Source: a virus. Taken from it: a stretch of 64,000 bases of DNA. Location: IMG/VR virus record IMGVR_UViG_3300024258_000005; one strand, 5' to 3'. Of this stretch, positions 10,054 to 63,722 are shown piece after piece; position 1 is the stretch's first letter, and the number at the start of each line of letters is the position of its first letter. The position numbers and the translations under genes were made by a program. The notes under the pieces are model-generated. The model was not told the DNA's origin. It was given only the letters and a program-made list of their open reading frames with translations, and searched no databases.

Positions 10054-11697
10054 ATGCAAGGTACAAATAGACCCTCAATATTACAATTAAGCATAATGAA
10101 AATATTTGCAACAGATACAAAAACATCAAAATATTTAGAAAAACGTTTTGAGTTAGATGATGAAGCATTTATTGATGCTGCTAAAAAGCAACGTCCGAAA
10201 AATAGAAAGTTGATTGATTTTTTAGATGAACGTAGAGTTCATTTAGAAAATACAGTTCCACCTGAAGTCGAAGAAGAAGTTGCTGAGACTGAACCTGAGA
10301 CTGAACCTGAGACTGAACCTGAGATTAGTAAAGATGATCAAATTCTTTTACAACTAAGAGAAATCTTTGCAAAAGATTCTGGTACACTAAAAAGAATTAA
10401 TCGTAATTATGTGCAAGGTGTCGTCGGTGAAGCATTAGTTGTTATTGCTTTAAAGGCTAGACCTAAAAATGCTAAAACTTTAGCAATATTACATGAGATC
10501 AGATTTGGTCCTAAACGTGTTGTAGAAGAAGAAGATGTTGTAGATGATACATGGTCTAAAGAAGTTGCTGATAAAGTGTCTAAAGAAGATGATGAAGTAA
10601 AAGTTACAACAGCTGCTGGTAAATATGATAATGTTGTAGTAGGCAAAATAAAAGGTAAAGTTGAAAAAATTGGTAAAGTTTCACATGTAGCTGAAGGTTT
10701 TGATGTTCGTGCTAAACTATTAGTTGCATTCTCAACAGATACTGGCACTTTAAAAGCAATCAATAAAAAGATTGGTAAGAATATTGGTGATGATGATTTA
10801 ATTGAAATGTGTTTAAGTCGTCGTCCTAAGAATGCAAAACTTAAAGCAATAATGAAAGACTTATCAGATTTTAGAGAATCAGAAGATGATGTTCGAGAAT
10901 TTGAAGGTGATGACTCAATCGTAGGTGATTACGAAATTAAAGCACAGATGAAAGTTGATAATATTCCATATGTTCAAAATGATGATAAAAATTTAACTAT
11001 GTTTATTAATGGTGAGATGGAAGTAATTAATAATGAACATCCAAATTTTAAAAAGATAGTAAAATGTCTTGAAGAAGAAAAATGGAATGATATTATACCA
11101 ATGCTTGATATTCGTTGTAGTGTTGCAAATTTAGTTTATAAGCAATTGGAGTTTAAAAATGATACTCTTTATCATGAAGGTAAAGAATTAGATGGAGCAC
11201 TTATTGATTTCATTTTAGCAATGGTGGAATCAGGTGAAAATGATATTCAACCATTTATGAGATTCTTACATAAGTTATTAAAGAATCCAAGTAAACGAGC
11301 ACAAAAAGAACTTTATAGTTTTCTAGCATCAGGTAAGATTCCAATTAATGAGAGAGGCAATATTCTAACTTATAAACGTATTAATGAAAACTGGACTGAT
11401 TGTCATTCTGGTAGTATTAGTAATAAAGTTGGTGAAACTGTTTCAATGGAAAGAGGTAAAGTTGATGATAGAAGTACTGTAACTTGTTCTCAAGGTTTAC
11501 ATGTTTGTTCATATAGTTATCTTTCATCATTCGGTGGAGGTAGAACAGTTATATGTGAAGTTAATCCTTTAGATGTTGTTTCAATTCCTTCAGATTATCG
11601 GAATGCGAAAATGAGATGTTGTAAATATACAATTCTTAAAGAAATTAAGAATAACGAAGCAGATGTACTTTCAGAAAGTCCTATCTACTTTAAATAA
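10054..11697 (+). CDS. rIIB: rIIB-like protein with a long repeated N-terminal extension
   Basis: HPNF, FL..LLKNPS, YKRI..NWTDCHSG, TCSQGLH, VNPLDVVSIPSDY..AKMRCCKY. Confidence 0.9.
   Translation: MQGTNRPSILQLSIMKIFATDTKTSKYLEKRFELDDEAFIDAAKKQRPKNRKLIDFLDERRVHLENTVPPEVEEEVAETEPETEPETEPEISKDDQILLQLREIFAKDSGTLKRINRNYVQGVVGEALVVIALKARPKNAKTLAILHEIRFGPKRVVEEEDVVDDTWSKEVADKVSKEDDEVKVTTAAGKYDNVVVGKIKGKVEKIGKVSHVAEGFDVRAKLLVAFSTDTGTLKAINKKIGKNIGDDDLIEMCLSRRPKNAKLKAIMKDLSDFRESEDDVREFEGDDSIVGDYEIKAQMKVDNIPYVQNDDKNLTMFINGEMEVINNEHPNFKKIVKCLEEEKWNDIIPMLDIRCSVANLVYKQLEFKNDTLYHEGKELDGALIDFILAMVESGENDIQPFMRFLHKLLKNPSKRAQKELYSFLASGKIPINERGNILTYKRINENWTDCHSGSISNKVGETVSMERGKVDDRSTVTCSQGLHVCSYSYLSSFGGGRTVICEVNPLDVVSIPSDYRNAKMRCCKYTILKEIKNNEADVLSESPIYFK
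10285..10323 (+). repeat. In-frame 12-bp tandem repeat (ETEP x3)
   Basis: GAGACTGAACCT x3 plus GAG. Confidence 0.9.
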
Positions 11698-29887: not shown

Positions 29888-32134
29888 ATGAGTAATGAAT
29901 TAGAAAGAGAATTTACTTACCCAGGAAAAGAACTTAAAGAGATTGAGAAAACAGAAGAGCTTACTCGATTAGAGAAGTTCTTATATGATTCAAATGCAAG
30001 TTCTCTTTATATGGATGATGTTATTGATTTTAAACATGAACCAATGTTCCTCGGAACAGGTAAAAATACTCAAAGATTTGATGATCCCAAATATGCATTT
30101 TTTGATAAATCAAATGATAAACAACAAGGTAATGATTGGAAACATAATGAAGTACCACTTGTTCAAGATCAAGCAGATTTTAAAACATCATTAACTGATG
30201 CACAAAGATTTATAACTAGAGTTGATCATCAAAAATTAATATTTTTAGATTCAATTCAAGGTCGTGGACCATTATTAATTTTTGGACAAATCACAACTTT
30301 GCCTGAACTTGAAAATGTTATTCTTACATGGGAATATTTTGAAGGTGCAAAACATTCAAGAACTTACACGGAACATCTTAGAGCATTCTATGATAAACCA
30401 GATGAGGTATTTGATGAAGCATTTCAACTTCCAGAGTTAAAAAAACTAGCTAAGAAGATTGGTGTAGTTTATGACATTGCTTATTATAATGTAATTAATT
30501 ATGTTTATAAAGATCAACGTGGTTTAGAATACACTCAACAAGAATACAAAGACTTAAAAGAAAGTATTGTTATGTTATGGGTTGAGATTAATATACTTGA
30601 AGGTATAAGATTTTATCCTGGTTTTGCTAGTATTTGGGGAATGACTGAATCAAAAAATATTTTTAGAGGTGTTTCTGAAAATTTACAATTTATTTGTATG
30701 CATCCAGAAACTGACATATTGACAGATAAAGGTTGGAAAAAAGTAGAATTTTTATCATTAGATGATAATATTGCACAACAAGATTTAGATACAGGTTTAG
30801 TGTCATTTGCTAAACCAACTAGAAAGATATGGAGAGAATATAAAGGAAAGATGCATAAAATCATAGATGCAACTGGAAAAACTATTCAACATTTAACAGA
30901 AGATCATGAAATAGTTGTTAGTAGAAGAAATTCAAAAACAAAAGAATTAACAACAAAAAAAGTTAAAGTTCAAGATACAAAATTTAATAATTCAACATAT
31001 TACCCACAAGGTGGAAAATTAGAAATCTCAAATGATGAATTTGCATTAAATACTTTAGAACAATTTAGAATCATGACAGCGGCTGATGGATATATTAATC
31101 CTCGCAGTAATGGTAAACAAACAGGATTTCAAGCAGTTAATTTTTCATTAAAAAAAGAACGAAAAATAGAATTATTCTTTCAATATTGTAATGAATTAGA
31201 TTATAAAATAGTTGAAACAAAATCAATTAATGATGTTAGAATGTTTATAGTAAGTGTTCCTGTTGAAATTAATATATCTAAATCTTTAAATTGGATATGT
31301 TTAAATTCAAGCACTGATTATATAGATAGTATTTTAATGGAGTTAATTAAATGGGATGGTTCAGATAAAACAGAAGCTTCAAATAATAAATATGCTTTTT
31401 TTACAAGCGATAAAGAAGTTGCTGATCAGGTAATTGCGTTAATTACTTTAAGTTCATATAAATCATTTAATTACAAACAAGTTAATAAATCACAAGGACA
31501 TTATAAAGATTCGTATAAAATATATTTTAGAGATGATGAAAAAATTATAAATACTCAAAAATATATTGATGATGTATATGATTATGATGGAATGATTGGA
31601 TGTGTGACTATGCCAAAAGGTACTATTATAACTAAATCGGTTGATAATAAGGTAACTACAACTGGAAACTGTCGCGATGAAAATGAACATTTAGCATTAA
31701 CTCAATTTATGTTAAAACTTCTAAAAAAAGAAAAAGAAGAAGGTTTTGTTGAAGTTTATAAAGAACTTGAACCTCGTATTGAAGCGAGATTTTATGAAGC
31801 TTATCATGAAGAATGTGATTGGATAGATTTTAAATTTAGTAAAGGTTCATACACTGGTATGAATGCTGCTATCCAAAAAATGTATTTAAATTATATTACT
31901 ATTCGTAGAATGCGTGCTGTTGGTTTAAATCCAACAAAAGAACGTCTTGGTGATATGTATATTATAAAGAATCCAATTCCATGGGTTGATAAATTTATCA
32001 ACATGGACAAAAATGAAAAACTTCCACAGGAAGAAAAAGTTCTAAATTATATAACAGGTGCTGTTGAACAAGATGTTGCAAAACATAGCGAACTTGCTTG
32101 TGTTAAACGACTACTAAAACAATTTATAAAATAA
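29888..32134 (+). CDS. nrdB: Ribonucleotide reductase class Ia beta subunit with intein
   Basis: LDSIQGR, EGAKHSR.Y, LEGIRFY, I|CRDENEH, EEC.W; 423 aa after splicing. Confidence 0.95.
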   Translation: MSNELEREFTYPGKELKEIEKTEELTRLEKFLYDSNASSLYMDDVIDFKHEPMFLGTGKNTQRFDDPKYAFFDKSNDKQQGNDWKHNEVPLVQDQADFKTSLTDAQRFITRVDHQKLIFLDSIQGRGPLLIFGQITTLPELENVILTWEYFEGAKHSRTYTEHLRAFYDKPDEVFDEAFQLPELKKLAKKIGVVYDIAYYNVINYVYKDQRGLEYTQQEYKDLKESIVMLWVEINILEGIRFYPGFASIWGMTESKNIFRGVSENLQFICMHPETDILTDKGWKKVEFLSLDDNIAQQDLDTGLVSFAKPTRKIWREYKGKMHKIIDATGKTIQHLTEDHEIVVSRRNSKTKELTTKKVKVQDTKFNNSTYYPQGGKLEISNDEFALNTLEQFRIMTAADGYINPRSNGKQTGFQAVNFSLKKERKIELFFQYCNELDYKIVETKSINDVRMFIVSVPVEINISKSLNWICLNSSTDYIDSILMELIKWDGSDKTEASNNKYAFFTSDKEVADQVIALITLSSYKSFNYKQVNKSQGHYKDSYKIYFRDDEKIINTQKYIDDVYDYDGMIGCVTMPKGTIITKSVDNKVTTTGNCRDENEHLALTQFMLKLLKKEKEEGFVEVYKELEPRIEARFYEAYHEECDWIDFKFSKGSYTGMNAAIQKMYLNYITIRRMRAVGLNPTKERLGDMYIIKNPIPWVDKFINMDKNEKLPQEEKVLNYITGAVEQDVAKHSELACVKRLLKQFIK
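30695..31669 (+). mobile_element. Intein (325 aa) with LAGLIDADG-like endonuclease in nrdB
   Basis: Starts CMHPETDILTDKGW, ends VTTTGN, followed by Cys+1; AADG and WDG blocks. Confidence 0.9.
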
Positions 32135-32170: not shown

Positions 32171-35100
32171 ATGATTAATATCATAAAAGATGATGGTTCT
32201 AAAGAGGAATATAAGCCCGAGAAATCACAACAGCATTTAGGTTATGCTGTTGAAGGACTATCTAGGGTATCAATTTCAGAAATTGAAATGAGAGCTTCTC
32301 TTTCAATCGAAGATGGAACAACGTCAAAAGAAATTCAACAAGCATTGATTAAATCTTGTGCTGATCACATTAGTGAAGATGAAGATGAATATCAAATTGC
32401 AGCTGCTAGATTGTTAAATCAAGATATTCGTAAAGATGTTTACAAGCAATATACTCCAAAATCATTTATTGAAATGATTGATAAAGGGTGCGATGCTGGT
32501 TATTATGATTCTGAATATTTATGGAAATATTACACAAGAGATGAAATTATTACTTATGGTAAATTAATTGATTATGACCGTGATGACAATTTTGTATATT
32601 CAGGTTTAAAGAAAACAAAAGATTCTTATCTAGTTAAACAATTTGGTAAAATTCAAGAAACTCCTCAAGAGATGTTTCTATTAATTAACATATTTGCATT
32701 TGCAAAGTACAAAGGTGCTTTAAGAGACAAATGGGTTAAAAATGGTTATGATATTTTATCTAACTTTGAAGCTAGTCTTCCTACTCCTGTTATGATTCAA
32801 GTTCGATCGATGTTCAGAAAATATATTTCATGTTTTAGAGGAAATACTAAAATACGCATAGCTAATTTAGATTTTAAACTTATACAGGACATTGTTATTG
32901 GTGATAAAGTTCAAACAATTCAAGGAAATCTTAAAGAAGTTGTTGCTATAAATATAAAAGAACATACAGATGAATTTATAACAATTAATTCATCATATGG
33001 ATTAAATGATGAATTTACATCAACTGATAATCATCCAATAAAAAGCATTTTATTTGATGATATAAAATGTATTAGAAACCAAACTCCTAGTAATACTAAA
33101 CCAATTTGCATAACTTCTCAAACTAAAGCAAAACATTGTTTAAAATCTAAAAATCATTATAAAAATGATTGTGAATTATTAAATACTGACTGGTCAACTA
33201 TATCAAAATTTGTAGAAGCAAAAGATTTATCAATACATGATTATATCGCCATTCCTTTTGATAATAAGATAATATGCGATAATTTATTTGATATGAAAGA
33301 TTTTATAAATGATGATAAATACAAATTAATAAATGGATATATAACAAAAGAGCATATTAAAGTTTTTAATTTAAATCGGTTAATTAAAGTTGATGCAGAT
33401 TTTATGTATATTCTTGGTTGGTTTGCTGCTGAAGGGTGTGTTGTAAATAATCATTTAAATTTCTCACTAAATATAAATGAGATGGATTATTTAATAGATA
33501 TTAAAGATAAGATAAAACGAGTCTTTAATATAGAAGGTAAAATATATGATAATGGTGATAATTCCGTATCGTTGCAGGTTTCTCATAAAATACTAGCAAA
33601 TTTCTTTAATATTATATTAAATAATGCTAAGGAGAAAAGAGAAGGTTCTGTAATTCATGAAAAGATATTATACGCTGATTATGAATCACAAAAATATTTT
33701 CTCAAAGGAATATTTCTAGGAGATGGGTTTTTAGCAAGTAATTATTTAGGATTAGATATTGTTGATAAGAGATTCATTGATTTTACAAATCATTGTTTAC
33801 TTAGAAATGGTTTTATTTCACAAAATAGTAAATATATAAATGCTGCTAACACTCAATGTTATAGAATTAATATTCGTTTTGGTTTAAATGCAGAATTTAT
33901 AAAATTTGTAGATAAACGAACAGAAAATTTTAAAATTATTAAACAATTAGAAAATATTAATAATATAAAGTCTCCTAAAAATATAGGATTTTTTCAAGAG
34001 AATATATTATATAGTAAAATTATTAATATTAAAAAATTTAAAGAGGTTGTTGAAGTCTATGATATTGAAGTTCAAGATGATCATACTTTTATAGCAAATG
34101 ATTATGGTGTACATAATTGTAACTTAATTCATCCAGGCGATAGTAATACTACATTAGCAGAAGCTTCTAAAATTATTATGAAACTTGTTGCTGCTGGTGC
34201 TGGTCTAGGAATCGGTAATACTGTTCGTGGATTAGATGCTGATATTGATAATGGTCGTTTATCACATACTGGTTGTTTACCAATTTATAAGGGTTATGAA
34301 AAATTGACTAAAGCTTTTGTTCAACCATCACGAGATGGTTCAAGTACTGTTTACCATCCTTTCTTCCATGTTGAAATAGAATCAATGATGGTATGGGGAA
34401 ATGCTAAAGGTACTGAAGAAACACGTATTCGTGAGATGGATCATGCTATTACATTTAGTGCTCTCTTTTGGGAACGTTATGCTAATGGTGAAGATATTAC
34501 ATTATTCTATTTAAATGATGTTAAAGATCTTGTTAACTTTATGGGTGATGATGAAAAATTCAAAGAGCTTTATGAAGGTTATGAGAAATCTGTTCCGGCT
34601 GAACGTAGAACAACTATTACAGCTGAAAGTATATTTGATACATTTGTAGATGAAAGACATTTACAATCTAGAGAATATACTGCTTTCTTGGATAATATTG
34701 GTAAACAAGGAATGTACAAAGTTCCTATTTTTATTAGTAATTTATGTACTGAAATAACTCAACCAATTTATCCTGTTCATGAACAAGGACATAAAAGAAA
34801 TATTAAATTCAATGATGCGGCTTCTGAAGAGAAGTATTGGGATCTACGAACTGAAGCATATTTCTATCCAGATAATGATGTTAAGCGTACAAGCTTTATG
34901 CGTCAAATGTCTGAGTTATATACTTTTGTTGATGCTGATCCTTTTGCGGAAGTAGATGAAGATAAAGTATATGATTACTTTACTAATCGTGGATTTCCAA
35001 ACCTAGCAGAAGTTGGTGTTTGTATTCTAGGTGGTGTAAATATGGGTCATACTACTGATAAGCGTTTACCAATTGTAAGTGAATACTTAGTTCGTTTCTT

Positions 35101-35914
35101 AGAAGAGTTAATTGATATGGGGACATATGATGTACCTGAAGTTGAAAAAGCTGCTAAGATGCGTAGAACATTAGGTATTGGTTTCAGTGATATATTCCAT
35201 TTAATGGCAATCAATAAAGTATTTTATAATACTAGAGAAGGTCGTCAATTTATTGCAAATAGAATTGAATTATGTACATATCATATGACAAGAACTTCTA
35301 TGGAACTTGCGAAAGAGCGTGGAGCATGTTTACTATTTAAAGACACTAAGTACTCTGATGGTCTATTACCAATAGATACTTATAACAAACATGTTGATGA
35401 ACTTATTGGTAAAAATACCGAATTTGATATTGATTGGCCTTGGCTTCGTGAGCAAATTTTGAAATATGGAATGAGACATTCTACATTGACAGCTAATGCT
35501 CCATTTGGAAGTTCTTCAATGGTTTCAAATTCAACTCCAGGGATTGAACCTCCAAGAGGTTTACAAGTTTCTAAAAAAGGTGTTACTAAATTAGTACCTG
35601 ATATTAGAAGATTTGGTAAATATTATACAACTGCATGGAGTGATGATTTTAACAATATTGATTATTTTAAATTTATTGCTGTTGTTCAGAAATTTATGGA
35701 TCAAACATTAAGTGTTAATCAATATCATAATATGATTAAAACTGATGGTAAGAAAAAGAAATCATTATTAATAGAAGAAATTTTAGTTGCTTGGTATTAT
35801 GGTTTAAAAACATTATACTATTCAAATATTAGAAGTACTGATCAAGCTGATGGTGATGATGAAATTGAAGAAGAAGAAGATGATGGTTGCGCAGGCGGCG
35901 GTTGTAAAGTATAG
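32171..35914 (+). CDS. nrdA: Ribonucleotide reductase class Ia alpha subunit with intein
   Basis: ATP cone, SLPTP, SNLCTE, EVGVC, GIEP, QTLS.N, KTLYY, C-terminal CAGGGC; 818 aa after splicing. Confidence 0.95.
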   Translation: MINIIKDDGSKEEYKPEKSQQHLGYAVEGLSRVSISEIEMRASLSIEDGTTSKEIQQALIKSCADHISEDEDEYQIAAARLLNQDIRKDVYKQYTPKSFIEMIDKGCDAGYYDSEYLWKYYTRDEIITYGKLIDYDRDDNFVYSGLKKTKDSYLVKQFGKIQETPQEMFLLINIFAFAKYKGALRDKWVKNGYDILSNFEASLPTPVMIQVRSMFRKYISCFRGNTKIRIANLDFKLIQDIVIGDKVQTIQGNLKEVVAINIKEHTDEFITINSSYGLNDEFTSTDNHPIKSILFDDIKCIRNQTPSNTKPICITSQTKAKHCLKSKNHYKNDCELLNTDWSTISKFVEAKDLSIHDYIAIPFDNKIICDNLFDMKDFINDDKYKLINGYITKEHIKVFNLNRLIKVDADFMYILGWFAAEGCVVNNHLNFSLNINEMDYLIDIKDKIKRVFNIEGKIYDNGDNSVSLQVSHKILANFFNIILNNAKEKREGSVIHEKILYADYESQKYFLKGIFLGDGFLASNYLGLDIVDKRFIDFTNHCLLRNGFISQNSKYINAANTQCYRINIRFGLNAEFIKFVDKRTENFKIIKQLENINNIKSPKNIGFFQENILYSKIINIKKFKEVVEVYDIEVQDDHTFIANDYGVHNCNLIHPGDSNTTLAEASKIIMKLVAAGAGLGIGNTVRGLDADIDNGRLSHTGCLPIYKGYEKLTKAFVQPSRDGSSTVYHPFFHVEIESMMVWGNAKGTEETRIREMDHAITFSALFWERYANGEDITLFYLNDVKDLVNFMGDDEKFKELYEGYEKSVPAERRTTITAESIFDTFVDERHLQSREYTAFLDNIGKQGMYKVPIFISNLCTEITQPIYPVHEQGHKRNIKFNDAASEEKYWDLRTEAYFYPDNDVKRTSFMRQMSELYTFVDADPFAEVDEDKVYDYFTNRGFPNLAEVGVCILGGVNMGHTTDKRLPIVSEYLVRFLEELIDMGTYDVPEVEKAAKMRRTLGIGFSDIFHLMAINKVFYNTREGRQFIANRIELCTYHMTRTSMELAKERGACLLFKDTKYSDGLLPIDTYNKHVDELIGKNTEFDIDWPWLREQILKYGMRHSTLTANAPFGSSSMVSNSTPGIEPPRGLQVSKKGVTKLVPDIRRFGKYYTTAWSDDFNNIDYFKFIAVVQKFMDQTLSVNQYHNMIKTDGKKKKSLLIEEILVAWYYGLKTLYYSNIRSTDQADGDDEIEEEEDDGCAGGGCKV
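32831..34117 (+). mobile_element. Intein (429 aa) with LAGLIDADG endonuclease in nrdA
   Basis: Starts CFRGNTKI, ends VYDIEVQDDHTFIANDYGVHN, followed by Cys+1; LGWFAAEG and FLKGIFLGDG blocks. Confidence 0.95.
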
Positions 35915-36547: not shown

Positions 36548-37201
36548 ATGACAAAAGAATTTATCATCAATAATTTTATTGATGATAATGGCCAGTTAGA
36601 TAGACAAGCTTTTTTAAAATATTATGATTGTGATTCAACTTCTATTTATAAATTGTTAAAAATATTAAATAATAAAATATTAAATTATGAATATTGGAAC
36701 AATAGAGAATATATAATTAATAATTTTCTTGATAAAAATAACATAATAGATAGAAAAATTATTGAATCTTTTTTTGGATGTGAAAGAACATCGATAGATA
36801 GACAGCTTAAAAAATTAAAAATAGATTATAATTATAAAAGAAAACAATTTAAAAGATCCAATAAAAGTAAATATGAATATAAAATTATTAATATTTTAAA
36901 AAAACTCAACCCAAATATAAAAATAACACATTCAACTTATAATATTATATCTCCATTAGAACTTGATATTTTTCTACCTGAATATAATATAGCTATTGAG
37001 TTTAATGGTCTATATTGGCATAGTTATTCTAAAAATAATAATGTTTCAAAAAGACAAGGAAATTTAGAATTTCATAATGGTGAAATATTAAAAGATGAAA
37101 ATTATATGTGGGAAAATACTATATTACATTTAGGTCAAAAAATTTTAAATGGTAGAATACTGTATAATGCTGGAAAAATAATATATAAAAGGAAAAATTA
37201 A
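36548..37201 (+). CDS. PD-(D/E)XK (DUF559/Vsr-like) putative homing endonuclease, probably degenerate
   Basis: ELDIFLPEYNIAIEFNGLYWHS; two N-terminal repeats. Confidence 0.7.
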   Translation: MTKEFIINNFIDDNGQLDRQAFLKYYDCDSTSIYKLLKILNNKILNYEYWNNREYIINNFLDKNNIIDRKIIESFFGCERTSIDRQLKKLKIDYNYKRKQFKRSNKSKYEYKIINILKKLNPNIKITHSTYNIISPLELDIFLPEYNIAIEFNGLYWHSYSKNNNVSKRQGNLEFHNGEILKDENYMWENTILHLGQKILNGRILYNAGKIIYKRKN

Positions 37202-38629: not shown

Positions 38630-38642
38630 AACAAATATTAAA
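38630..38642 (+). promoter_or_regulatory. Candidate late promoter motif AACAAATATTAAA
   Basis: 16 nt upstream of the baseplate hub ATG; identical copy 16 nt upstream of the wedge gene on the - strand. Confidence 0.5.
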
Positions 38643-54831: not shown

Positions 54832-57192
54832 TTATACTACTTGTATATTTAAATTAATTGAATCATAATCAAAGAAGAAATAAGGAGGAACAAAATTAAC
54901 TATATCAAATAGTTTTAAATCTGCTCCACCTAATTTATTATCCATTGCATTATAAATAATTCTGGCGCTGTTTGTTGTAAACACTTTGGGACTGATAACA
55001 TCGACATTTTTAATCATGTCATATATTTTAACAATTTCTTTTTCAAGTAGTGTCTCATAAAATTCAGTTTCAAACCCTTCAGCTGTTCGAAGAACTTTAT
55101 ATATTGTATCCTTCATATCATATTCAAGTTCTTCAATTGATTCATAATCAGATAAAGAGTATTTATATTTATCGATAATAAGATCGATTACAATAATATT
55201 TCTAGTAGTAAGAATATCACCATTAGTATTCTTATCAATAATATATTCTCTATATTTAGGTTCAATTGCAATCGTGTTATAAAATGATTGTGTTGTTCCT
55301 ACATTAAAACTAATTGTTTTAATATCTTTTTCCACTCGAAAGAAAGTATCTAGTTTAGTAAAGAACTTTTCTATATTAGAAAGTTTAAGATAATTTAATT
55401 CCAGAAAAGGTAAATGTAATACATATCTAGTTTCATCTTGAGTATTTAATATATCAAGTTCAGTGTAGTAAAAGTGATCTTGTTTTTTTACTAGTTGATT
55501 ATATGAACCAACAGAAGTGTAAGTCATTACAAGTAAAGTATCTTGATAAATATCAATTTCAATATCTGATAAATCATCTTCAAATAAACAATATTCATCT
55601 AGAAATCTTTGGTTGACAATTTGTTTAAATTCATTATGAATAGAAAGTTCCATATCAAATTTATTACTTCTAAGTTTATATGTATATAATGTATTGAAAT
55701 TTTTAAGTTCAAGACGAGTTTTTCTTTCAAAATAATCATATGTTATATAAAGACCTACAGAATTCTGTAACTTAGTAAGTCTATCAGTAGAAGTATCTGT
55801 TTTCAATTCTACTTTTATATTTGGTTGTACCATATATGCAGTATAATGATTAAATCTTTTCTTATAATAAAAAGGACTAATTAAATCGATACCTTCATAT
55901 GTTTTAGTTGGCATAAACAATTCTGATTGAAATTCTGATTCTTCTATGTTAAATGTATTTGTTGGCACTATACGTTGATTTGTATCTCTGATAATATTAT
56001 ATATAAATAAATGATTTTGAGAGTTAAAGAATTTTGGATCCACGAATGGGATACCATCATCCATTGTATACATAATTTCAAAATCATTAATTGATGTAAT
56101 TGAATTTCTTGTACTATTCTTTTTAATCATTTCGGTTTTTATATCTTCAATATCTTTAATATCCATACCAAGTTCACCACCACTTAAAGAAAGAACTTTT
56201 AAGTTGGTTTTAGAAGCAGTACTATAACCACCTTCATCCTCAGATGAAACAATAATATCTTCAAGATTGATCTCAGCAGAGTTTACATTACCTCCTGAAC
56301 CTTTAGTAAGCTTCGTTTCAATAATAATTTGATCACCCGCAAATAGCTTGCGACCATTAATACCATCACCAACTGTAAATATAAGTTGATTCTCGGCTAT
56401 CTTCAAATACAAGTTATCATCAAATTGGCTAGCATTAAATTTATTATATTTAATTTGCATTTGAGATAAATCACCATAACCTTTAATGTTATCAGTATCT
56501 AGTAAATATAAATCATCTAATTCAACTTCGGGTTTTTCATTTGCTTCATTTTTAATCCAAGCTTGAATCTCATAAATATCATCTAAACTAGGAATATCTA
56601 AAGAGAATGAAAATGTTTCGCCAATACCATAATCAGGTATGTTAAATTTGTGGAATGATCTTTTATATTGTCTAAGTCCATTATATTCAACCATGTACAT
56701 ATTTAAATCAGCGTTTAACGGATTCTGTACTTTACTTACTTCAAGTACATTAATTTCTGTATCTGAATATCTCTTTGCTGTTACAACTGAGTTATTTACA
56801 AAGATTTTTACATCTTCTTCTAATGTATAATTTAATCCTGAACCATCAACAAAACTCACATTTCTTTTAATATCATAAGTAATGATTTCACTTTCTCTTA
56901 ATCTGTATTCAGGGATAAGAAATGATATCTGCATTGAAGCAGGTGTACCAAAAGTAATGTTATAGTTTAGAATACTTGCGTGGAATAATAATGAACTAAA
57001 TTCTGTTGCTGTTGCAGGATTCATTTCGCGTAGCAGCTTATTATAATATATTGCATTATCATATTTAATGTTAGCAAATATATTAACTAATGTTCCAAGT
57101 GCTCCTGTTTTTAACAAAGCAGGATTACTAACTTTTAATGTATCACGAACTATATTTTCATAGTCTAAAAGTGTATCAGTAATACTTTTCAT
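54832..57192 (-). CDS. Baseplate wedge protein (T4 gp6/baseplate J-like)
   Basis: TA...SSL..HA....Y...PASM; FTVGDG..G...GD.I.I....TKGSGGN; GG....E.IK...NSITSINDF. Confidence 0.7.
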   Translation of the reverse strand: MKSITDTLLDYENIVRDTLKVSNPALLKTGALGTLVNIFANIKYDNAIYYNKLLREMNPATATEFSSLLFHASILNYNITFGTPASMQISFLIPEYRLRESEIITYDIKRNVSFVDGSGLNYTLEEDVKIFVNNSVVTAKRYSDTEINVLEVSKVQNPLNADLNMYMVEYNGLRQYKRSFHKFNIPDYGIGETFSFSLDIPSLDDIYEIQAWIKNEANEKPEVELDDLYLLDTDNIKGYGDLSQMQIKYNKFNASQFDDNLYLKIAENQLIFTVGDGINGRKLFAGDQIIIETKLTKGSGGNVNSAEINLEDIIVSSEDEGGYSTASKTNLKVLSLSGGELGMDIKDIEDIKTEMIKKNSTRNSITSINDFEIMYTMDDGIPFVDPKFFNSQNHLFIYNIIRDTNQRIVPTNTFNIEESEFQSELFMPTKTYEGIDLISPFYYKKRFNHYTAYMVQPNIKVELKTDTSTDRLTKLQNSVGLYITYDYFERKTRLELKNFNTLYTYKLRSNKFDMELSIHNEFKQIVNQRFLDEYCLFEDDLSDIEIDIYQDTLLVMTYTSVGSYNQLVKKQDHFYYTELDILNTQDETRYVLHLPFLELNYLKLSNIEKFFTKLDTFFRVEKDIKTISFNVGTTQSFYNTIAIEPKYREYIIDKNTNGDILTTRNIIVIDLIIDKYKYSLSDYESIEELEYDMKDTIYKVLRTAEGFETEFYETLLEKEIVKIYDMIKNVDVISPKVFTTNSARIIYNAMDNKLGGADLKLFDIVNFVPPYFFFDYDSINLNIQVV

Positions 57193-57208
57193 AAATCTCC
57201 TTTTTTTA

Positions 57209-57221
57209 TTTAATATTTGTT
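57209..57221 (-). promoter_or_regulatory. Candidate late promoter motif AACAAATATTAAA (second copy)
   Basis: 16 nt upstream of the wedge gene ATG (57192). Confidence 0.5.
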
Positions 57222-57263
57222 GGCTTGTTTGAAATTAACCTCAAGGAAATCTTAGAAAAGAAA

Positions 57264-57596
57264 TTAATCTTTTCTAAGAGAATCTAGGGCACCACCTGAG
57301 AAGTAAAATCCTAAGATGGCTAATATAATCATACCTAAATTAAAAGCCGCTATAATCGCTATAATCGCTTTATAGTCTACACCTATAGCATTAGCTGATA
57401 ATGCTAATGATATTGCTATAACATATATTAACGAGAAGATTAAAGCTATTGAACGTTGCATTAATTTGAACGCTGTGTACTCGCTAAACATAAAATTAAT
57501 TTGTTTGGTTTTTGTATCATCTGATATAGGAAGAGAGTTGATGAATTCAACTCTATCTGCTATATATTCTTTTGTTCCAAATATTTTTCCTATCAT
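57264..57596 (-). CDS. Holin-like membrane protein (3TM/GTA-holin-like)
   Basis: AFKLMQRSIAL followed by hydrophobic helices and LGFYFSGG. Confidence 0.6.
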   Translation of the reverse strand: MIGKIFGTKEYIADRVEFINSLPISDDTKTKQINFMFSEYTAFKLMQRSIALIFSLIYVIAISLALSANAIGVDYKAIIAIIAAFNLGMIILAILGFYFSGGALDSLRKD

Positions 57597-57608
57597 TTAT
57601 TTTCCTTC

Positions 57609-58775
57609 TTAAAATAATATATCTAATCTGATACAATATCTAAATGATTCATCATCTATTGGTGTAACACTGTTACCACCAGATAATTTAGCATAATCTA
57701 TTTGTTCGTATCTTCCGGTTACACCTAGTTTAATCTTTGGTGTAACATATATACCTGTATACACTTTAAAGGTATTTCCTAAATTACCCCATGAGTAAGC
57801 ATTTATATTTTCTAAATCGGTAGCATAACTTATCCAATGTTTAGAAGCATAAAAATACTCTGCACCGAAATAAGAATCTAATCTAAATATATTAGCATCA
57901 AAATCTTTCTTAGCTCCAACAAGAACACTATATCCAGTTCGTTTACCTTCATCGCTAAAGTTGATACCCGGACCTTCTAATGCTGTGCCAGTTGGTGATA
58001 TTTCTGTACCATCAAAATCTGTAACAGATACCCCGGCTATACCATAATATACCATTCCTGATGTATCTCGATCATCATACTGATAACCAACACCTGCGAA
58101 GTATAAATTTCCTAATGATTCTAATGTTTCTTCATCATATATCTTTTCATATATAATATTCGATACTGAAGCATTAATTCTAAACGTATGTTTATCAATT
58201 ACACTCTTTGTAAATAAATATCCTATATCACTTCCATTTCTAGAGTTTTCATATCTATCTTCTGGTAACTGGTAAATGTCATCTATTCTGGCACCATAAC
58301 CAAATTGTATTTTATGATTTTCATTTATATAATGGGTATAAAATACACCAGTCATATTAATATAATAAAATGTCATAAGAGCATCGCTAAGTTTTAAACC
58401 AGCAGTACTATGTTCACTAAACACACCATTCTTAAAACTAAAATTACCAACGCTGATAATATCATCAGGTGTTATAAATATGTTTAAATCTAATTCACTA
58501 ATTTCAAAATAATTCTCAGCTGGACGTATTTTATTATATGAACGAGAATATATCTCTGATCTACTTGTATAATTAATCGTACTATTAATAGTAACATATT
58601 TATTAAATATGATGTCATTATAAGTATTCAATATTATTCTATGTCCTTCGGCTTCTATATCATTTCCTAGAACTGTTCCACTACTACTGCCATACATAAA
58701 CTCTAGTTTGTTAAAATTTTTAAGTTCTACCGCGTATAAGTTTAAACAGATTACTAATATCATTAAATATTTCAT
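57609..58775 (-). CDS. Outer-membrane beta-barrel (porin-like) protein
   Basis: Signal peptide MKYLMILVICLNLYA; many alternating Y/F/G beta-strands; C-terminal IRLDILF ending in Phe. Confidence 0.7.
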   Translation of the reverse strand: MKYLMILVICLNLYAVELKNFNKLEFMYGSSSGTVLGNDIEAEGHRIILNTYNDIIFNKYVTINSTINYTSRSEIYSRSYNKIRPAENYFEISELDLNIFITPDDIISVGNFSFKNGVFSEHSTAGLKLSDALMTFYYINMTGVFYTHYINENHKIQFGYGARIDDIYQLPEDRYENSRNGSDIGYLFTKSVIDKHTFRINASVSNIIYEKIYDEETLESLGNLYFAGVGYQYDDRDTSGMVYYGIAGVSVTDFDGTEISPTGTALEGPGINFSDEGKRTGYSVLVGAKKDFDANIFRLDSYFGAEYFYASKHWISYATDLENINAYSWGNLGNTFKVYTGIYVTPKIKLGVTGRYEQIDYAKLSGGNSVTPIDDESFRYCIRLDILF

Positions 58776-59041
58776 AATTTATCTCCTATCTCACGTGAGT
58801 GCTTATCAATATCAAACCCTTTTGAAATCAAGCATTGCCCTAAATAAAATTTATCAAAGTCACTTACTTTGCCGTCTGTATACTCATAAAGTTCATTCTT
58901 TTTAACTACCCTTTTCCATCCAGAGATACTTTTTATCTCGGGCGAAATTAGATACTTGTTAAAATATATTTGACAGGATTCAGCATACACATGAGAAAAT
59001 GATAGCATTATAATAATGCATATCTTTTTTATATTTTTCAT
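58772..59041 (-). CDS. Small secreted/periplasmic protein
   Basis: Signal peptide ending VYA; two Cys in the mature part. Confidence 0.7.
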   Translation of the reverse strand: MKNIKKICIIIMLSFSHVYAESCQIYFNKYLISPEIKSISGWKRVVKKNELYEYTDGKVSDFDKFYLGQCLISKGFDIDKHSREIGDKL

Positions 59042-60394
59042 TTACACTCCTATATATATTGCAGGGAAGATTATTTCGAATACTGTTCCGTTTCCGGATG
59101 TTTCACGAAGTTTTAAATCTCCTGCCTTTTCATTTAGTAACTCTTTATTTAAATAAAGACCTACACCTCTAACATTAACATCAGTTGGTTTTTTAAATAT
59201 GTTTGCTAATTTATGTAAAGAGTCTAATATGTATCCTTTAGATTCGCGAATTACAAACTCACCTGATGAATCTTTACTTGAATAGTATGGTTTAAATATG
59301 TCTTCATATTTCTCTTTACTAAGAAGTAGACCAGTTGTTCTATCTCTTAATCCTACACCATTATCTATAATATATAAATGTAAATCTTTAGTTACATTAT
59401 TAAATTTAACTTGTGTGACAATTCTTGATGAGTTTGCTTCTAAAGAATTTCTAAAATGATTAGATACAATATTTAAAAGGTCACCATTTTTTAATAGTCC
59501 ATCTAATTTGTATTTTCCTAAATTGGGATCTATTTTGATATTAAAATTTGATTTTTTATATATGTTCATTGAGTTCACACTGTACTCAATTATGTTTTTT
59601 AATGTTTTATTTCCCTTACTGTATTTCAAGTTTTTAAAATTACTCATACGCTGGAGAACATTATCTATTTGTTCTATACTAGAATATAATTGACCGAAGT
59701 CGAAGAAGAATTTTTCATTACACTTACAATCATAAATGGGAGATAATGTGCTTTGCATTTCAATTTCTAACTTTCTAATATTACCTTGAATAATAGCAAC
59801 AGGTGTATTAAGTTCATGATGAATATTCTCCGTTAGGATTTGCATATTCTTTTCTCTTAATGTATTACTTGTACTCATCATATCTAAAATTTTTCGTTTT
59901 CTTAATTTATATTCTAAACCGAAGAAGACAAAGGTGTATATTAAAAATAATATAATATTTATATTTATATACCCCATAAAAATATTGTCTATTAAAAGTT
60001 GTGTATTTGGAACTATATAAATTTGATAATCAGGAAATTCCATATATAAATTTAAATTATTAGTTAATGATAGTTCTTTACCACTAAAAGATAACTCTGG
60101 TTTTAAATAGGATTCTCTTTGTAATATATTATTTTCTTGTAGAGTATAAGTTGAATTATTGACAAATCCTATTTCAGAACAAGTTGTAATAATACATAAA
60201 TGTTGTAAATCAATTTCATCAAACTCTTCAATAATACTTATAATAGTAGAATTTATTCTATCCTTATATACTACATTTATTGTATAAAAATTTTCAAATA
60301 GTACAGCATTCATAATAAATATATTTAATAAAAGATATAAACTATAACGTGTACACGTTTTAATATTGTCATGGGTATACATTATATCTCCCAT
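59042..60394 (-). CDS. Membrane sensor histidine kinase
   Basis: Two TM helices; H-box IHHELNTP, N-box SNHFRNS, G1 DNGVG, F-box IFKPYYSSK, G2 GVGLY, GNGTVF. Confidence 0.92.
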   Translation of the reverse strand: MGDIMYTHDNIKTCTRYSLYLLLNIFIMNAVLFENFYTINVVYKDRINSTIISIIEEFDEIDLQHLCIITTCSEIGFVNNSTYTLQENNILQRESYLKPELSFSGKELSLTNNLNLYMEFPDYQIYIVPNTQLLIDNIFMGYININIILFLIYTFVFFGLEYKLRKRKILDMMSTSNTLREKNMQILTENIHHELNTPVAIIQGNIRKLEIEMQSTLSPIYDCKCNEKFFFDFGQLYSSIEQIDNVLQRMSNFKNLKYSKGNKTLKNIIEYSVNSMNIYKKSNFNIKIDPNLGKYKLDGLLKNGDLLNIVSNHFRNSLEANSSRIVTQVKFNNVTKDLHLYIIDNGVGLRDRTTGLLLSKEKYEDIFKPYYSSKDSSGEFVIRESKGYILDSLHKLANIFKKPTDVNVRGVGLYLNKELLNEKAGDLKLRETSGNGTVFEIIFPAIYIGV

Positions 60395-61053
60395 TTTTGC
60401 TGAGTGTAATACTCTTCTATTAAATCTCCATACGCTGAAACTCTATTACCATTTTTATTAATAATATGTTTATACATTTCAATCTCTTCACCTTTGTAAA
60501 CTAACTTTTTAGTTTCATCTATTGGTGTTTGGAAAAACTCTTCAAATTTTTGAATGAATTCAAAAATTTCAGGATTATATTTATTTAATGTGTGCCCTGT
60601 TATAAATTTAATTAAGCACTTTGGATTATGTTGTTTTAACATGATGGCTACATCGATGCCATCATATTCAATATTATTAATTACACCACCAAGTGTGATA
60701 TCTAGAATTCCAACATCTACTGTTTTATCAGGATCTTTAAGATATTTTTCTACTGTAAATCCAGCATAGTTGCCAGTTGCCATCATAATATTAAATTCTT
60801 TATATACATCACAATATTGAACTCTACTAAGCTCGTCTTTAATTAATTCAGCCATTCCAGTAAAATCATCCATTATAAGAATATTTGGATTTCCTTCTAT
60901 TTCTGGTTGACAGAAAAACATTTCAGGAACTTTGATACTATATTCTGCAGGTTTTAATTCTGCAGGTGTAATATATTCATCATTGAATTTCATTTTCTTT
61001 TTACGTGATTTAAAAGGGTTAATTGTTTGTATTATAGTAAGAATCTTATTCAT
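60382..61053 (-). CDS. Stand-alone response-regulator receiver protein
   Basis: ILIMDD, ILDITL (phospho-Asp), DGIDV, FITG and probable IINK; no recognisable output domain. Confidence 0.85.
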   Translation of the reverse strand: MNKILTIIQTINPFKSRKKKMKFNDEYITPAELKPAEYSIKVPEMFFCQPEIEGNPNILIMDDFTGMAELIKDELSRVQYCDVYKEFNIMMATGNYAGFTVEKYLKDPDKTVDVGILDITLGGVINNIEYDGIDVAIMLKQHNPKCLIKFITGHTLNKYNPEIFEFIQKFEEFFQTPIDETKKLVYKGEEIEMYKHIINKNGNRVSAYGDLIEEYYTQQKWEI

Positions 61054-61517
61054 TTCGTTTCCTTTATAACATCAGCTGTCTCATTTATAACTCTGATTAA
61101 ACTTTCATTAATTGCTCTGTATGCTCCAGGATCAATTTCATAAATAGTAACAAGTACCATTACAATTACTACCCAAGTAAATAAAACTCGTTTAGCATTT
61201 TCCCATGTTAACATTTCATATAATCTTTGTGTCCATGGTAAGTACTTTTTTCTTTCATTAATCATTTTATTAACAGTTGTTGATTTAATTGTTAATGCTT
61301 TATCTAAAAGAATAAGCATTTGTTTTTTATCTGATTTATTTGTCATATTAAATTCATTATATATTAGTACAAATAATTCATATGTCTCAGGGGATACTTT
61401 TTTTACTTCAAAAAATTTGCCCATAAGATCTTGTTTTTCATCATCAGAATTTTTATAGTTCAGTATATCAATTCTTAATTCTTCTAATTTATTACTTAAT
61501 GTAATATAATCTTCCAT
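61050..61517 (-). CDS. Single-pass membrane protein
   Basis: C-proximal TM helix VLFTWVVIVMVLVTIY; overlaps the receiver gene start. Confidence 0.75.
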   Translation of the reverse strand: MEDYITLSNKLEELRIDILNYKNSDDEKQDLMGKFFEVKKVSPETYELFVLIYNEFNMTNKSDKKQMLILLDKALTIKSTTVNKMINERKKYLPWTQRLYEMLTWENAKRVLFTWVVIVMVLVTIYEIDPGAYRAINESLIRVINETADVIKETK

Positions 61518-61541
61518 ACTCTCTCCTTTTTATTCTCGTGT

Positions 61542-62468
61542 TTAATTGTTGTCTAAACTATGTGCTTTTGACATATCTTCTATAAATTCATCAAATAATG
61601 GACCTTTACGGTCAGCATCACTATCATAAAATTTATAAACCATATCATTTGATTTATAACTTTGATTTATTGTTGATATGGCATTTTTGCCTCTATCACC
61701 AATTATTTGTTTAAATGGTAAATTGATAGGAGATACTCCCATAATTTTAACTAAGCCTCTAATATTGGTTGTGAATGGTGCAAATATAACTACCCAAACA
61801 GCATTGAAATATGGAACATCTATAAAGTATTTTTTATCAACATTTTCTGGAATGTCTGGTTTAATATAACCTTTCTTTAAAGCATCTATATATTTAAACC
61901 AACTTTCATGGTATCTAAAAATGTGGTTATTATAGTCGTCAATATAATTTATACTAAAATCACCAGCAAAGTGCAACTTACTTGCGTAATTAAGATTTCT
62001 TGATTTACCTGATATACTTTCATATTCAATATTTAATTGAGGAATATCAATATCAGTTGCAAGTTGACCAAAATCCTTTGCTACTTTATTAAAGTGACCT
62101 TTATTAAATGTACTTGTATCATTATTAGTAATATAATCTTTTTCATATGAACTAATAACCTCTGTCTCTGTCTCTGCTGTCGTAGATTTTAAAGTCTGAG
62201 CTGTATTAACCCATGAACCATGAACCATTTGAATATAATAATAACCATTAATATGAGGAGCGAAGCTACTATAATCAATAGTTACTTTCTCATGCATAAT
62301 TTGAATAAGTTTATCATATTTAGGATTAGTAGCATTATGTGCGGTATTAAATTTCTTACTAATTTGTTCTTTATATGTGGTGGAATCTTCTATTCCACTA
62401 ATATCAGATGTTATATCCGATTGAGTTACGGGTGTTGCTGTAGTACTATTAAATTCCGTTAATGGCAT
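61542..62468 (-). CDS. Tail-tube-fold protein (T4 gp19/gp48/gp54-like)
   Basis: ATDIDIP...FSINYIDD...W and P.......D......STINQSY pattern. Confidence 0.55.
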   Translation of the reverse strand: MPLTEFNSTTATPVTQSDITSDISGIEDSTTYKEQISKKFNTAHNATNPKYDKLIQIMHEKVTIDYSSFAPHINGYYYIQMVHGSWVNTAQTLKSTTAETETEVISSYEKDYITNNDTSTFNKGHFNKVAKDFGQLATDIDIPQLNIEYESISGKSRNLNYASKLHFAGDFSINYIDDYNNHIFRYHESWFKYIDALKKGYIKPDIPENVDKKYFIDVPYFNAVWVVIFAPFTTNIRGLVKIMGVSPINLPFKQIIGDRGKNAISTINQSYKSNDMVYKFYDSDADRKGPLFDEFIEDMSKAHSLDNN

Positions 62469-62496
62469 TTATTTTTCCTTTTAAATTATTAATTTT

Positions 62497-62556
62497 GAAG
62501 ACTTTATAAATTGAAAAAATTTGAATTTATAAAGTCTTCGAGTCTAAGACTCGAAG
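62497..62556. promoter_or_regulatory. Two overlapping inverted repeats
   Basis: 16-bp IR (62497-62512/62524-62539) and 10-bp IR (62536-62545/62547-62556) share 62536-62539. Confidence 0.55.
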
Positions 62557-63722
62557 TTAGCATCTTTACAAAATGCTTGTTTTGCTCGTAGTACTATTAA
62601 TAATAATAGAACCTTTCTAAGTTTTAATCGACTGCTATTGCTACCAGATTTCATAATACCTTTATACATTGTATTTAAAAGAGTATCGACATATTTCTTA
62701 AGCTTAGCAATTTGAACATTATTACCCTTAGCCGAAGTTATCTTAGACACTGTCTGTAATATATGCATACCACATATTTTTGTATCATCAATTTTGATAA
62801 TATTAAACATCAATTCATAAATATTTTTAAGATCATCTTCTGCATCGTCAGAGTTTAAAAACACTTCTGAATCAGTTAGGAACTTATTTGAAATTGAATA
62901 AGGATCTGCTTTAAGATACCTTCTATCGCTTTCGGATATTTTTTGAGGACGATGCATTAGATTCTTTTGTAGTTTGCTAACGGTACTTGCTACCTTAGAA
63001 CTTTCAATTGAATCAACTTCTGTACCCTTAACATCAGATGTTGCTCCGATAACAGATTTATTACCATCAGCATGTGCTTGATAATAATGTTTTTGTATTC
63101 CCATGAATACTTGTTCCATTCTTCCCCATGCTTGCATCAATATAACAACTAAACCTAAAGTAGGATGAGCTGGATCTTTTTGAACATATGGAAAGTATTT
63201 TTCATCTAGAGTTGGTGCAAAGTATTGTGTAATTGCTACAAATGGATTGGGATATTTTTTAAAAGTATGTGACTTACGAAATATACTTTGAATTAAAAAT
63301 TGTGCAATCTCATCTTGACAGCCATTAGGCATGAACTTATATTGTCTACCATTAAACACTTTAACATATATAAGAGCAATCGAAATTGTTCTTAATAAAT
63401 CATCATCTGCTCTTACCCCAATGTAATATACAAGGCTTAAAGTTTGATAATATAAAGAACTATACATTCTTGAATCAGGATGAAATCCAATTTGAGTAAA
63501 ACTACTAAGCATTTGTCTATCGCTTATGCCAAATATCTTTAATAATTTCTTATCAAGTGTATTAGGTGTTCTAAGTGCATTACAAAAACTAGAATGACCC
63601 ATAGAGTCATTGTTTAGTTTTCGAATGATAGCAATTAGTAGATTTTTAATCTCATCATATAGTACTTTATTTTTAAGTATTTTATCTGCAACGAACTCTA
63701 TTTCTTGTGGCATTTTATGCAT
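62544..63722 (-). CDS. Hypothetical protein
   Basis: 392-aa ORF with AAGGA RBS. Confidence 0.8.
   Translation of the reverse strand: MHKMPQEIEFVADKILKNKVLYDEIKNLLIAIIRKLNNDSMGHSSFCNALRTPNTLDKKLLKIFGISDRQMLSSFTQIGFHPDSRMYSSLYYQTLSLVYYIGVRADDDLLRTISIALIYVKVFNGRQYKFMPNGCQDEIAQFLIQSIFRKSHTFKKYPNPFVAITQYFAPTLDEKYFPYVQKDPAHPTLGLVVILMQAWGRMEQVFMGIQKHYYQAHADGNKSVIGATSDVKGTEVDSIESSKVASTVSKLQKNLMHRPQKISESDRRYLKADPYSISNKFLTDSEVFLNSDDAEDDLKNIYELMFNIIKIDDTKICGMHILQTVSKITSAKGNNVQIAKLKKYVDTLLNTMYKGIMKSGSNSSRLKLRKVLLLLIVLRAKQAFCKDANFES

Follow-up and report, generated by a model that had tools for sequence, protein, structure and literature searches.

Does a phage that carries its own membrane sensor kinase use it for signalling and, if so, what does the signal control? 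The question is raised by six tightly packed genes on the minus strand (positions 57264–61517) of a 64,000-nucleotide (nt) stretch of viral DNA, called the window here, which corresponds to bases 17–64016 of the 181.6-kb IMG/VR virus record IMGVR_UViG_3300024258_000005 (completeness rating 65%). The initial annotation, made from the letters of the window alone, had described these genes as an envelope signalling operon that spans a membrane protein, a receiver, a sensor kinase, a periplasmic protein, an outer-membrane barrel and a holin, and had proposed that it could set the time of lysis. According to our analysis, the cassette is a phage-only signalling block that is inherited with the phage, and its kinase and receiver very probably form a working phosphorelay. 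The reading that we favour as a whole, namely a phage-owned phosphorelay with an output at the membrane, most likely the timing of lysis, has in our estimation about an even chance of being right. The phage, a marine jumbo phage, and its host are both uncultured, and the functional steps that go beyond sequence and fold are inferred.

All six open reading frames (ORFs) listed in the initial annotation were reproduced with identical coordinates and junctions. The first two genes overlap by 4 nt (61050–61053) and the second and third by 13 nt (60382–60394); the third and fourth abut (59042/59041), the fourth and fifth again overlap by 4 nt (58772–58775), and a gap of 12 nt precedes the last. A terminator-like hairpin, the sole site of this kind in 56900–62700, spans the stop codon of the last gene, and for this reason the six genes appear to close a single transcription unit. 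The last gene, with the 12-nt gap on its upstream side and the terminator behind it, lies within the same unit. The G+C content of the cassette (0.26–0.29) does not differ from that of the remainder of the window. The features are as follows:

61050–61517, minus strand: g1, tail-anchored membrane protein of 155 amino acids (aa), assigned from the ORF, its transmembrane segment and an alignment of 21 sequences
60382–61053, minus strand: g2, stand-alone receiver (single-domain response regulator) of 223 aa, assigned from invariant residues and a fold model
59042–60394, minus strand: g3, membrane sensor histidine kinase of 450 aa, assigned from Pfam HATPase_c and its catalytic residues
58772–59041, minus strand: g4, secreted protein of 89 aa, assigned from its signal peptide and an alignment of 13 sequences
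57609–58775, minus strand: g5, outer-membrane beta-barrel of the DUF3373 family, 388 aa, assigned from Pfam PF11853 and a fold model
57264–57596, minus strand: g6, protein of 110 aa with two transmembrane helices (phrog_9646), a probable holin by the position of its homologs
57250–57279, minus strand: terminator-like hairpin with a 12-bp stem, a 6-nt loop and a T-rich tail, which spans the last codons and the stop codon of g6

The kinase, the receiver and the constant third gene

The kinase g3 matched Pfam HATPase_c with 30.0 bits, above the cut-off of 26.4 bits. In the H box, H193, E194 and P198 were kept in all 25 non-redundant relatives; N316, D344, G346, G348, F367, G410 and G412, which belong to the N, G1, F and G2 boxes, were kept in these relatives wherever the alignment covered them. 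Two transmembrane helices enclose a periplasmic loop of about 95 aa and are followed by the dimerization and histidine phosphotransfer (DHp) domain and the catalytic domain; the first helix scored below the threshold in the window copy and is clear in the relatives. The kinase with complete H, N, G1, F and G2 boxes and a periplasmic sensor loop, which the initial annotation had read from one sequence, is therefore borne out across the 25 relatives. Within the loop, a pair of cysteines (C67/C72) is kept in 20–21 of 22 sequences, and the kinases of the nearer clade have about 40 additional residues inserted between the F and G2 boxes. The solved kinases nearest to g3 are remote (ZraS, SrrB and FixL, E ~1e-6), and its NCBIfam matches, AtoS and PhoR, are weak. 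The kinases of the nearer clade, and only these, also have a Cys-x-Cys or CxxC motif in the loop that joins the DHp helices (59722–59730 of the window, kinase residues 223–225).

The residues expected of a receiver are likewise intact in g2. Among 21 sequences of its family, the relatives being 20–52% identical to g2, D62, D63, D118, T152 and K200 are invariant. In the AlphaFold2 model (mean predicted local distance difference test score, pLDDT, of 87), these residues sit at the ends of beta1, beta3, beta4 and beta5 of a (beta-alpha)5 order that is interrupted by two beta-hairpin inserts, one of them directly behind the acceptor Asp; a disordered N-terminal extension of about 55 aa precedes the fold. 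The PDB matches listed by Foldseek are receiver domains or regulators that contain one (ComE, DrrB, Spo0F, NtrC1 and RcsB), and against stand-alone receiver domains the template modelling score by target was 0.6–0.73. The double Asp, the phospho-acceptor Asp and the Thr noticed at first are thus confirmed in 21 sequences, with an invariant Lys and a modelled receiver fold in addition. Neither the alignment nor the model contains a DNA-binding domain or any other output domain, and the best NCBIfam match, CpdR, is very weak (E 0.024, far below the cut-off).

Two further observations concern the receivers of related loci, which are cited here by our locus numbers (L followed by three digits). 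In the distant clade (L006, L010, L011, L096, L098, L100, L101 and L103), the receivers carry an N-terminal cluster of three or four cysteines (CxxC...C), which is absent from the clade of the window and may be a zinc-binding docking element. In L093, a second stand-alone receiver is encoded directly behind the kinase (8174–8581, plus strand; Response_reg 38 bits, above the cut-off), and this suggests a branched relay in some lineages.

The third constant member, g1, begins with a helical part of about 105 aa that is cytoplasmic; a single transmembrane helix near residues 108–129 and a short C-terminal tail follow. In every context that was read it is accompanied by g2 and the kinase. Searches of Pfam, PHROG and NCBIfam returned no match for it, and those of the ESM Atlas no usable hit. 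A role of g1 as a histidine phosphotransfer (Hpt) or Spo0B-like phosphotransferase was considered and rejected, since the protein contains no His.

The residues needed for autophosphorylation and for His-to-Asp transfer are all kept across relatives that share 20–60% identity, and we consider a working phosphorelay very probable.

A phage-only signalling block inherited with the phage

Profile searches of all fetched loci revealed the trio g1–g2–g3 in about 20 non-redundant phage loci, whose flanks vary widely. Homologs of the kinase fall into 95 clusters, many of them on contigs of 180–295 kb; a scan of viral contigs with the kinase alignment yielded 19 IMG/VR loci, and scans of viral contigs with single proteins yielded no relatives. 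Two genomes with a completeness rating of 100% (one of 187.7 kb with terminal repeats, one of 193.7 kb) carry the trio but lack the barrel. For g1, g2 and g3, the distance matrices are correlated (Spearman coefficients of 0.60–0.74, with none of 2000 permutations reaching the observed value), as is expected for a block whose genes are inherited together.

The pair g4–g5 is found behind the kinase in about half of the trio loci and occurs on either side of the deepest division in the kinase tree, its main split, a distribution that requires at least 2 to 4 changes. The simplest reading is an ancestor with five genes from which g4–g5 was lost repeatedly. The initial annotation had treated all six genes as one unit that ought to be conserved together; this holds for the trio in about 20 phage loci, but the core is limited to g1–g3, whereas g4–g5 is dispensable and g6 occurs in the cassette only in the window and its nearest relative (L002/L003).

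The same annotation had named a common chromosomal host operon as a finding that would speak against it. A search of 185,579 bacterial species genomes with the barrel alignment found nothing, and the kinase alignment retrieved from the same genomes only generic kinases of about 20% identity and a single contig. This contig (L011; QMNM01000115.1, 5790 bases) is binned in a metagenome-assembled genome of the Cloacimonadota and contains g1 and g2 together with the first part of the kinase, and is most likely a mis-binned phage contig. With no close relative in the species genomes and a G+C content like that of the rest of the window, the cassette is not a common host operon. Searches of a cultured-phage collection with the block and the kinase, at both the DNA and the protein level, gave no match.

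An independent DNA run carries the cassette as contigs with zero differences. The runs that hold this DNA are labelled as seawater metagenomes, and the record of one relative as a hydrothermal vent metagenome. Among the RNA libraries, three metatranscriptome runs contain contigs of 151–214 nt, mostly exact, that fall on g4, g5, g6, the kinase and the flanking genes; these contigs were not counted as expression, as carry-over of DNA is possible, they give neither strand nor level, and bins without coverage are uninformative.

Two kinds of gene recur beside the trio. A ClpX-like AAA+ gene with a ClpX zinc finger lies divergently beside g1 in five loci, which are limited to related branches of one half of the kinase tree:

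L096:5485–6723, minus strand: ClpX-like gene
L098:5289–6383, minus strand: ClpX-like gene
L100:5410–6585, minus strand: ClpX-like gene
L106:5146–6297, minus strand: ClpX-like gene
L110:1974–3182, minus strand: ClpX-like gene

An actin-like gene (ALP_N / MreB-like_C) is found near the kinase in three loci (L004:5385–6290, L094:5627–6550 and L006:8910–9860), and the record studied here has one of its own at 171210–172115. In L004 and L094 the actin-like gene is followed by the kinase, g4 and g5, with no g1 or g2. In L093, a PhoH-like gene adjoins the trio.

The porin pair, the candidate holin and nearby lysis genes

The periplasmic protein and the outer-membrane barrel of the initial annotation are recovered here as a secreted protein, g4, and a DUF3373 barrel, g5. 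The former has a cleavable signal peptide that ends ...HVYA before ESC, and it has no lipobox. In the motif KS-x2-GW-x-R, residues S38, G41, W42 and R44 are invariant among 13 sequences; two cysteines are kept only in the nearer clade and not in the distant one. In the ESM Atlas the only match of g4 was a Campylobacterota cluster named 'periplasmic protein', with a score of 0.77 that is too weak to use. Wherever g4 occurs, it has g5 behind it.

The barrel g5 matched Pfam PF11853 (DUF3373) with 39.4 bits against a cut-off of 26.1 bits, and its signal peptide and C-terminal Phe (F388) are invariant in the alignment. The AlphaFold2 model (pLDDT 82) is a porin-like barrel of 16 strands, for which Foldseek returned OprB, OmpM1, AlgE and OmpF (E ~1e-12). 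DUF3373 corresponds to family 1.B.62 of TCDB, with a length of 505±71 aa (PMC4827864); at about 390 aa, the barrels of the g5 type are shorter. Their branch is small, with only 127 representatives among 1.84 billion proteins. In two additional contexts of g5 (L110 and L112), g4 lies upstream of the barrel gene; the one that is complete also has the trio with its kinase. In L092 (9435–10131), g4 is kept (137 aa) and an ORF of 118 aa stands in the place of g5, so that the barrel gene looks like one in decay.

The last protein of the cassette, g6, has transmembrane helices at residues 50–68 and 77–95 and a charged C-terminus that ends LRKD. Its only homologs in cultured phages are those of the Roseobacter phages CRP-831/821/822 and CRP-143 (two groups), which are 30–31% identical over the full length and share the same two transmembrane helices and the same C-terminal FYFxGG motif. 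They are annotated merely as hypothetical or transmembrane proteins, and they are encoded directly upstream of an M15 endolysin. Because these homologs occupy the classical holin position before an M15 endolysin, g6 is a probable holin.

Lysis genes also stand beside the cassette elsewhere. In L104 and L107, a GTA_holin_3TM gene directly precedes g1 and is accompanied by a divergent endolysin with GH108 and PG_binding_3 domains; in L097 and L117, an M15_3 endolysin directly precedes g1; and in L093, a phrog_465 endolysin, a different M15 enzyme, is encoded one gene upstream of the trio. Together with g6, these make four juxtapositions, which lie on separate branches of the kinase tree and involve unrelated lysis genes; a profile comparison of the g6 family with GTA_holin_3TM also found the two unrelated (probability 0.3%). 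This adjacency, known from gene order, is suggestive only.

As to the surroundings of the cassette in the window, the initial annotation had placed it inside a virion module, between a tail-tube-like gene and a baseplate wedge gene. The upstream gene does have matches to structural proteins, all of them sub-threshold (Phage_TTP_15, E 0.0011; phrog_21400 'virion structural protein', E 1.2e-5), but the 786-aa gene that had been called a baseplate wedge had no match in any library or in PDB, so that the labels of the flanks are weak. A PDB sequence search with both flanking genes returned nothing meaningful. Between the g6 terminator and the ribosome-binding site of the next gene, an exact 13-mer (57209–57221, minus strand) has a second copy at 38630–38642 (plus strand); it is not enriched in the window, with 2 exact copies and, when one mismatch is allowed, 4 matches against 2.1 expected.

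Elsewhere in the window, an rIIB-like gene (10054–11697) and an rIIA-like gene (11787–14450) are encoded on the plus strand (PHROG E values of 1e-70 and 4e-81), and the phage thus has T4-type membrane-associated rII genes alongside the signalling cassette. Ribonucleotide reductase is encoded by a small-subunit gene (29888–32134) and a large-subunit gene (32171–35914), both on the plus strand. The small-subunit ORF (748 aa) matches its family in the stretches 37–270 and 596–734, with an insert of about 325 aa between them, and in the large-subunit ORF (1247 aa) the best family match begins only at about residue 646; either ORF may contain inteins or additional fused domains. A DUF7487 protein has at least six paralogs at scattered places in the record, including one at 36717–37091 of the window. 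The full record also encodes a prohead protease of the T4 gp21 type and, outside the window at record positions 150913–153975, a gene resembling the beta subunit of multisubunit RNA polymerase, 54% identical to an Rpb2_6-bearing gene of L004.

Possible roles of the predicted relay and comparison with known systems

By its topology the cassette spans the envelope: the barrel belongs to the outer membrane, g4 is secreted, the kinase sits in the inner membrane with its loop in the periplasm, the receiver is cytoplasmic, and g1 is a membrane protein anchored by its tail. During infection, the kinase loop with its Cys pair would read a periplasmic or envelope cue, possibly a redox cue, and the kinase would phosphorylate the receiver at D118. 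The phosphorylated receiver would then act by protein contact at the membrane, a protein target being expected because it has no DNA-binding domain. The most likely partner would be g1, the prime candidate because it is never found apart from the pair g2/g3. The output would most likely adjust the firing of a holin and hence the time of burst, so that the relay may be regarded as a signal-transduction counterpart of T4 lysis inhibition. The proteins g4 and g5 would serve either to carry sensing outward as far as the outer membrane or to change the surface of the infected cell. Taken by itself, the tie between the output of the relay and the timing of lysis, which is suggested by gene neighbourhood, is a serious possibility to which we give somewhat less than an even chance.

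A more far-reaching version can also be envisaged, in which the cassette would be a private relay that spans the envelope: g5 and g4 would present a signal on the cell surface or release it there, the kinase would read it in the periplasm, and the phosphorylated receiver would act through g1 on the holin, so that the burst would be set by outside conditions such as superinfection or the density of phages. Such a relay would amount to lysis inhibition run by His-Asp signalling, or to a Gram-negative equivalent of communication between phages; we consider it improbable.

Several results weigh against a relay that controls lysis. On the side of the signalling proteins, the kinase scored below the cut-off of Pfam HisKA (19.3 against 26.9 bits), the motif being present and the domain divergent, although relatives of g3 carry precomputed PF00512 hits. 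The receiver fell below that of Response_reg (21.2 against 30.2 bits, E 3.3e-4), where the profile match is broken because of the two beta-hairpin inserts. The 21 sequences of the g1 family have no conserved catalytic-looking residue and belong to no known family. On the side of lysis, the initial annotation had called g6 holin-like, and its two transmembrane helices and the position of its homologs agree with this, but phrog_9646 is a PHROG of unknown function and g6 matches no Pfam or holin family. Moreover, the phage's own probable M15 endolysin (record 167733–168194, minus strand) is encoded 107 kb from g6; it is 62% identical to the phrog_465 endolysin of L093, and no obvious holin adjoins it. 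The inclusion of a holin in the signalling operon holds for this phage and its nearest relative and for no other relative. The link to lysis has circumstantial support from the lysis genes found by the cassette in four lineages, but about 12 of 16 contexts have no recognised lysis gene nearby, and a rough estimate of the chance of at least four such juxtapositions is 0.005–0.05. The other recurrent neighbours of the trio, the ClpX-like and actin-like genes, point elsewhere.

The relay could instead serve to remodel the envelope: a phage porin and its periplasmic partner would take up nutrients, or replace or mask a receptor and so exclude superinfecting phages, with the kinase and receiver tuning this activity to the state of the envelope or of nutrients. 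Porin genes such as lc and nmpC are carried by lambdoid phages, and porin-like proteins occur in other uncultured phages. It also fits this explanation that g4–g5 is ancestral to the cassette, being present in both main divisions of the kinase tree, and that g4 and g5 are translationally coupled; the weak best matches of the kinase to AtoS and PhoR and the PhoH-like gene beside the trio in L093 can be added. We nevertheless regard it as unlikely, since g4–g5 was lost repeatedly with the trio retained, including in the two 100%-complete genomes, so that the trio has a role that needs no porin, and the receiver lacks the DNA-binding domain that it would need in order to regulate genes. A quite different target would be the host's own signalling, into whose two-component pathways the kinase and receiver could inject phosphate, or from which they could drain it as a sink or decoy, and so reprogram the cell. 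A stand-alone receiver with no output domain is what is found in phosphorelay intermediates such as Spo0F, and the second receiver of L093 would suit a branched relay of this kind; yet the cassette has no Hpt or Spo0B-like partner, g1 being devoid of His, and the distance of the pair from bacterial pairs (about 20% identity to the best bacterial matches, remote PDB hits) argues against mimicry of a host partner. We therefore think such interference quite improbable.

The divergent ClpX-like gene beside g1 in five loci raises another idea, that the receiver is a phosphorylation-controlled protease adaptor, like CpdR or RssB with ClpXP, which would set the stability of phage or host proteins. 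The best NCBIfam match of g2 is indeed CpdR, but this match lies far below the cut-off, the adjacency to ClpX is restricted to related branches of one half of the kinase tree, and the 181.6 kb of the record of this phage (65% complete) contain no ClpX homolog; the adaptor role appears very improbable. Finally, the DUF3373 and histidine-kinase folds are bacterial in origin, and the cassette could in principle be a passenger, that is, a recently captured host operon, a mis-assembly or a decaying remnant. This is already contradicted by the lack of any close relative in the bacterial species genomes, by the roughly 20 non-redundant phage loci (two of them within complete genomes), by key residues that are all kept at 20–60% identity, by a composition that matches the phage, and by the independent DNA run with its contigs free of differences. 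A phage-owned phosphorelay with a membrane output, most likely on lysis timing, is the reading that we retain. Phages time lysis by means of holins and antiholins, and in a few cases they heed small-molecule or peptide signals. If the relay does set the time of lysis, large phages would decide on burst by active signal transduction from the cell envelope, and the kinase, the receiver, g1 and the holin would form a defined set of genes for testing. If its output is a different one, the cassette still holds a very divergent but intact kinase/receiver pair, an obligatory third partner with no known fold and a phage-specific branch of porins.

Systems with single-domain response regulators, such as CheA–CheY, KinA–Spo0F, DivJ/PleC–DivK and CpdR, signal by protein contact or by relay. 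The pair g3–g2 resembles them in its HisKA-type H box and its N, G1, F and G2 boxes, in the DD, D, T and K residues of the receiver, in the (beta-alpha)5 order and in the absence of an output domain. Unlike these systems, the cassette is encoded by phages, and by phages only, with a similarity of about 20% to any bacterial pair; its kinase is marked by about 40 aa inserted in the lid and by the Cys pair of its sensor loop, its receiver has hairpin inserts and an N-terminal extension, and g1 is obligatory.

T4 lysis inhibition involves the holin T, the antiholin RI and RIII, and the antiholin binds the holin directly. The proposed likeness is that the phage senses the state of the periplasm or envelope and may delay or set the firing of the holin; rIIA/rIIB-like genes are also present. 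In contrast to T4, nothing homologous to T, RI or RIII was seen, and the part of the sensor would fall to a histidine kinase phosphorelay, whose putative link to lysis comes from gene neighbourhood. In the Roseobacter phages the homologs of g6 stand beside an endolysin, whereas g6 ends a signalling operon and does not.

Among the envelope-stress pathways linked to the outer membrane, RcsF signals with outer-membrane proteins to RcsC/D/B, and NlpE signals to CpxA. In the cassette, too, the gene of a sensor kinase of the inner membrane has genes for a small secreted protein and an outer-membrane barrel as its neighbours, but g4 has no lipobox and is not a lipoprotein of the RcsF or NlpE type, no homology to these proteins was found, and the kinase is kept without g4–g5 in many phages. 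As a porin-like barrel of about 16 strands, g5 can be compared with the porins borne by other phages (lc, nmpC, and the OmpC-like and OprO/P-like proteins of uncultured phages), from which it differs in belonging to a phage-specific branch of DUF3373, in always standing behind g4, and in its place downstream of a kinase.

In the literature on phage-encoded two-component systems, vent jumbo phages and DUF3373, we found no description of such a phage-owned cassette. Overall, our comparison assigns the kinase and receiver to known families, of which they are divergent members; what is new is that a third gene obligatorily goes with them, that a porin pair specific to phages belongs to the cassette, and that a tie to lysis genes recurs.

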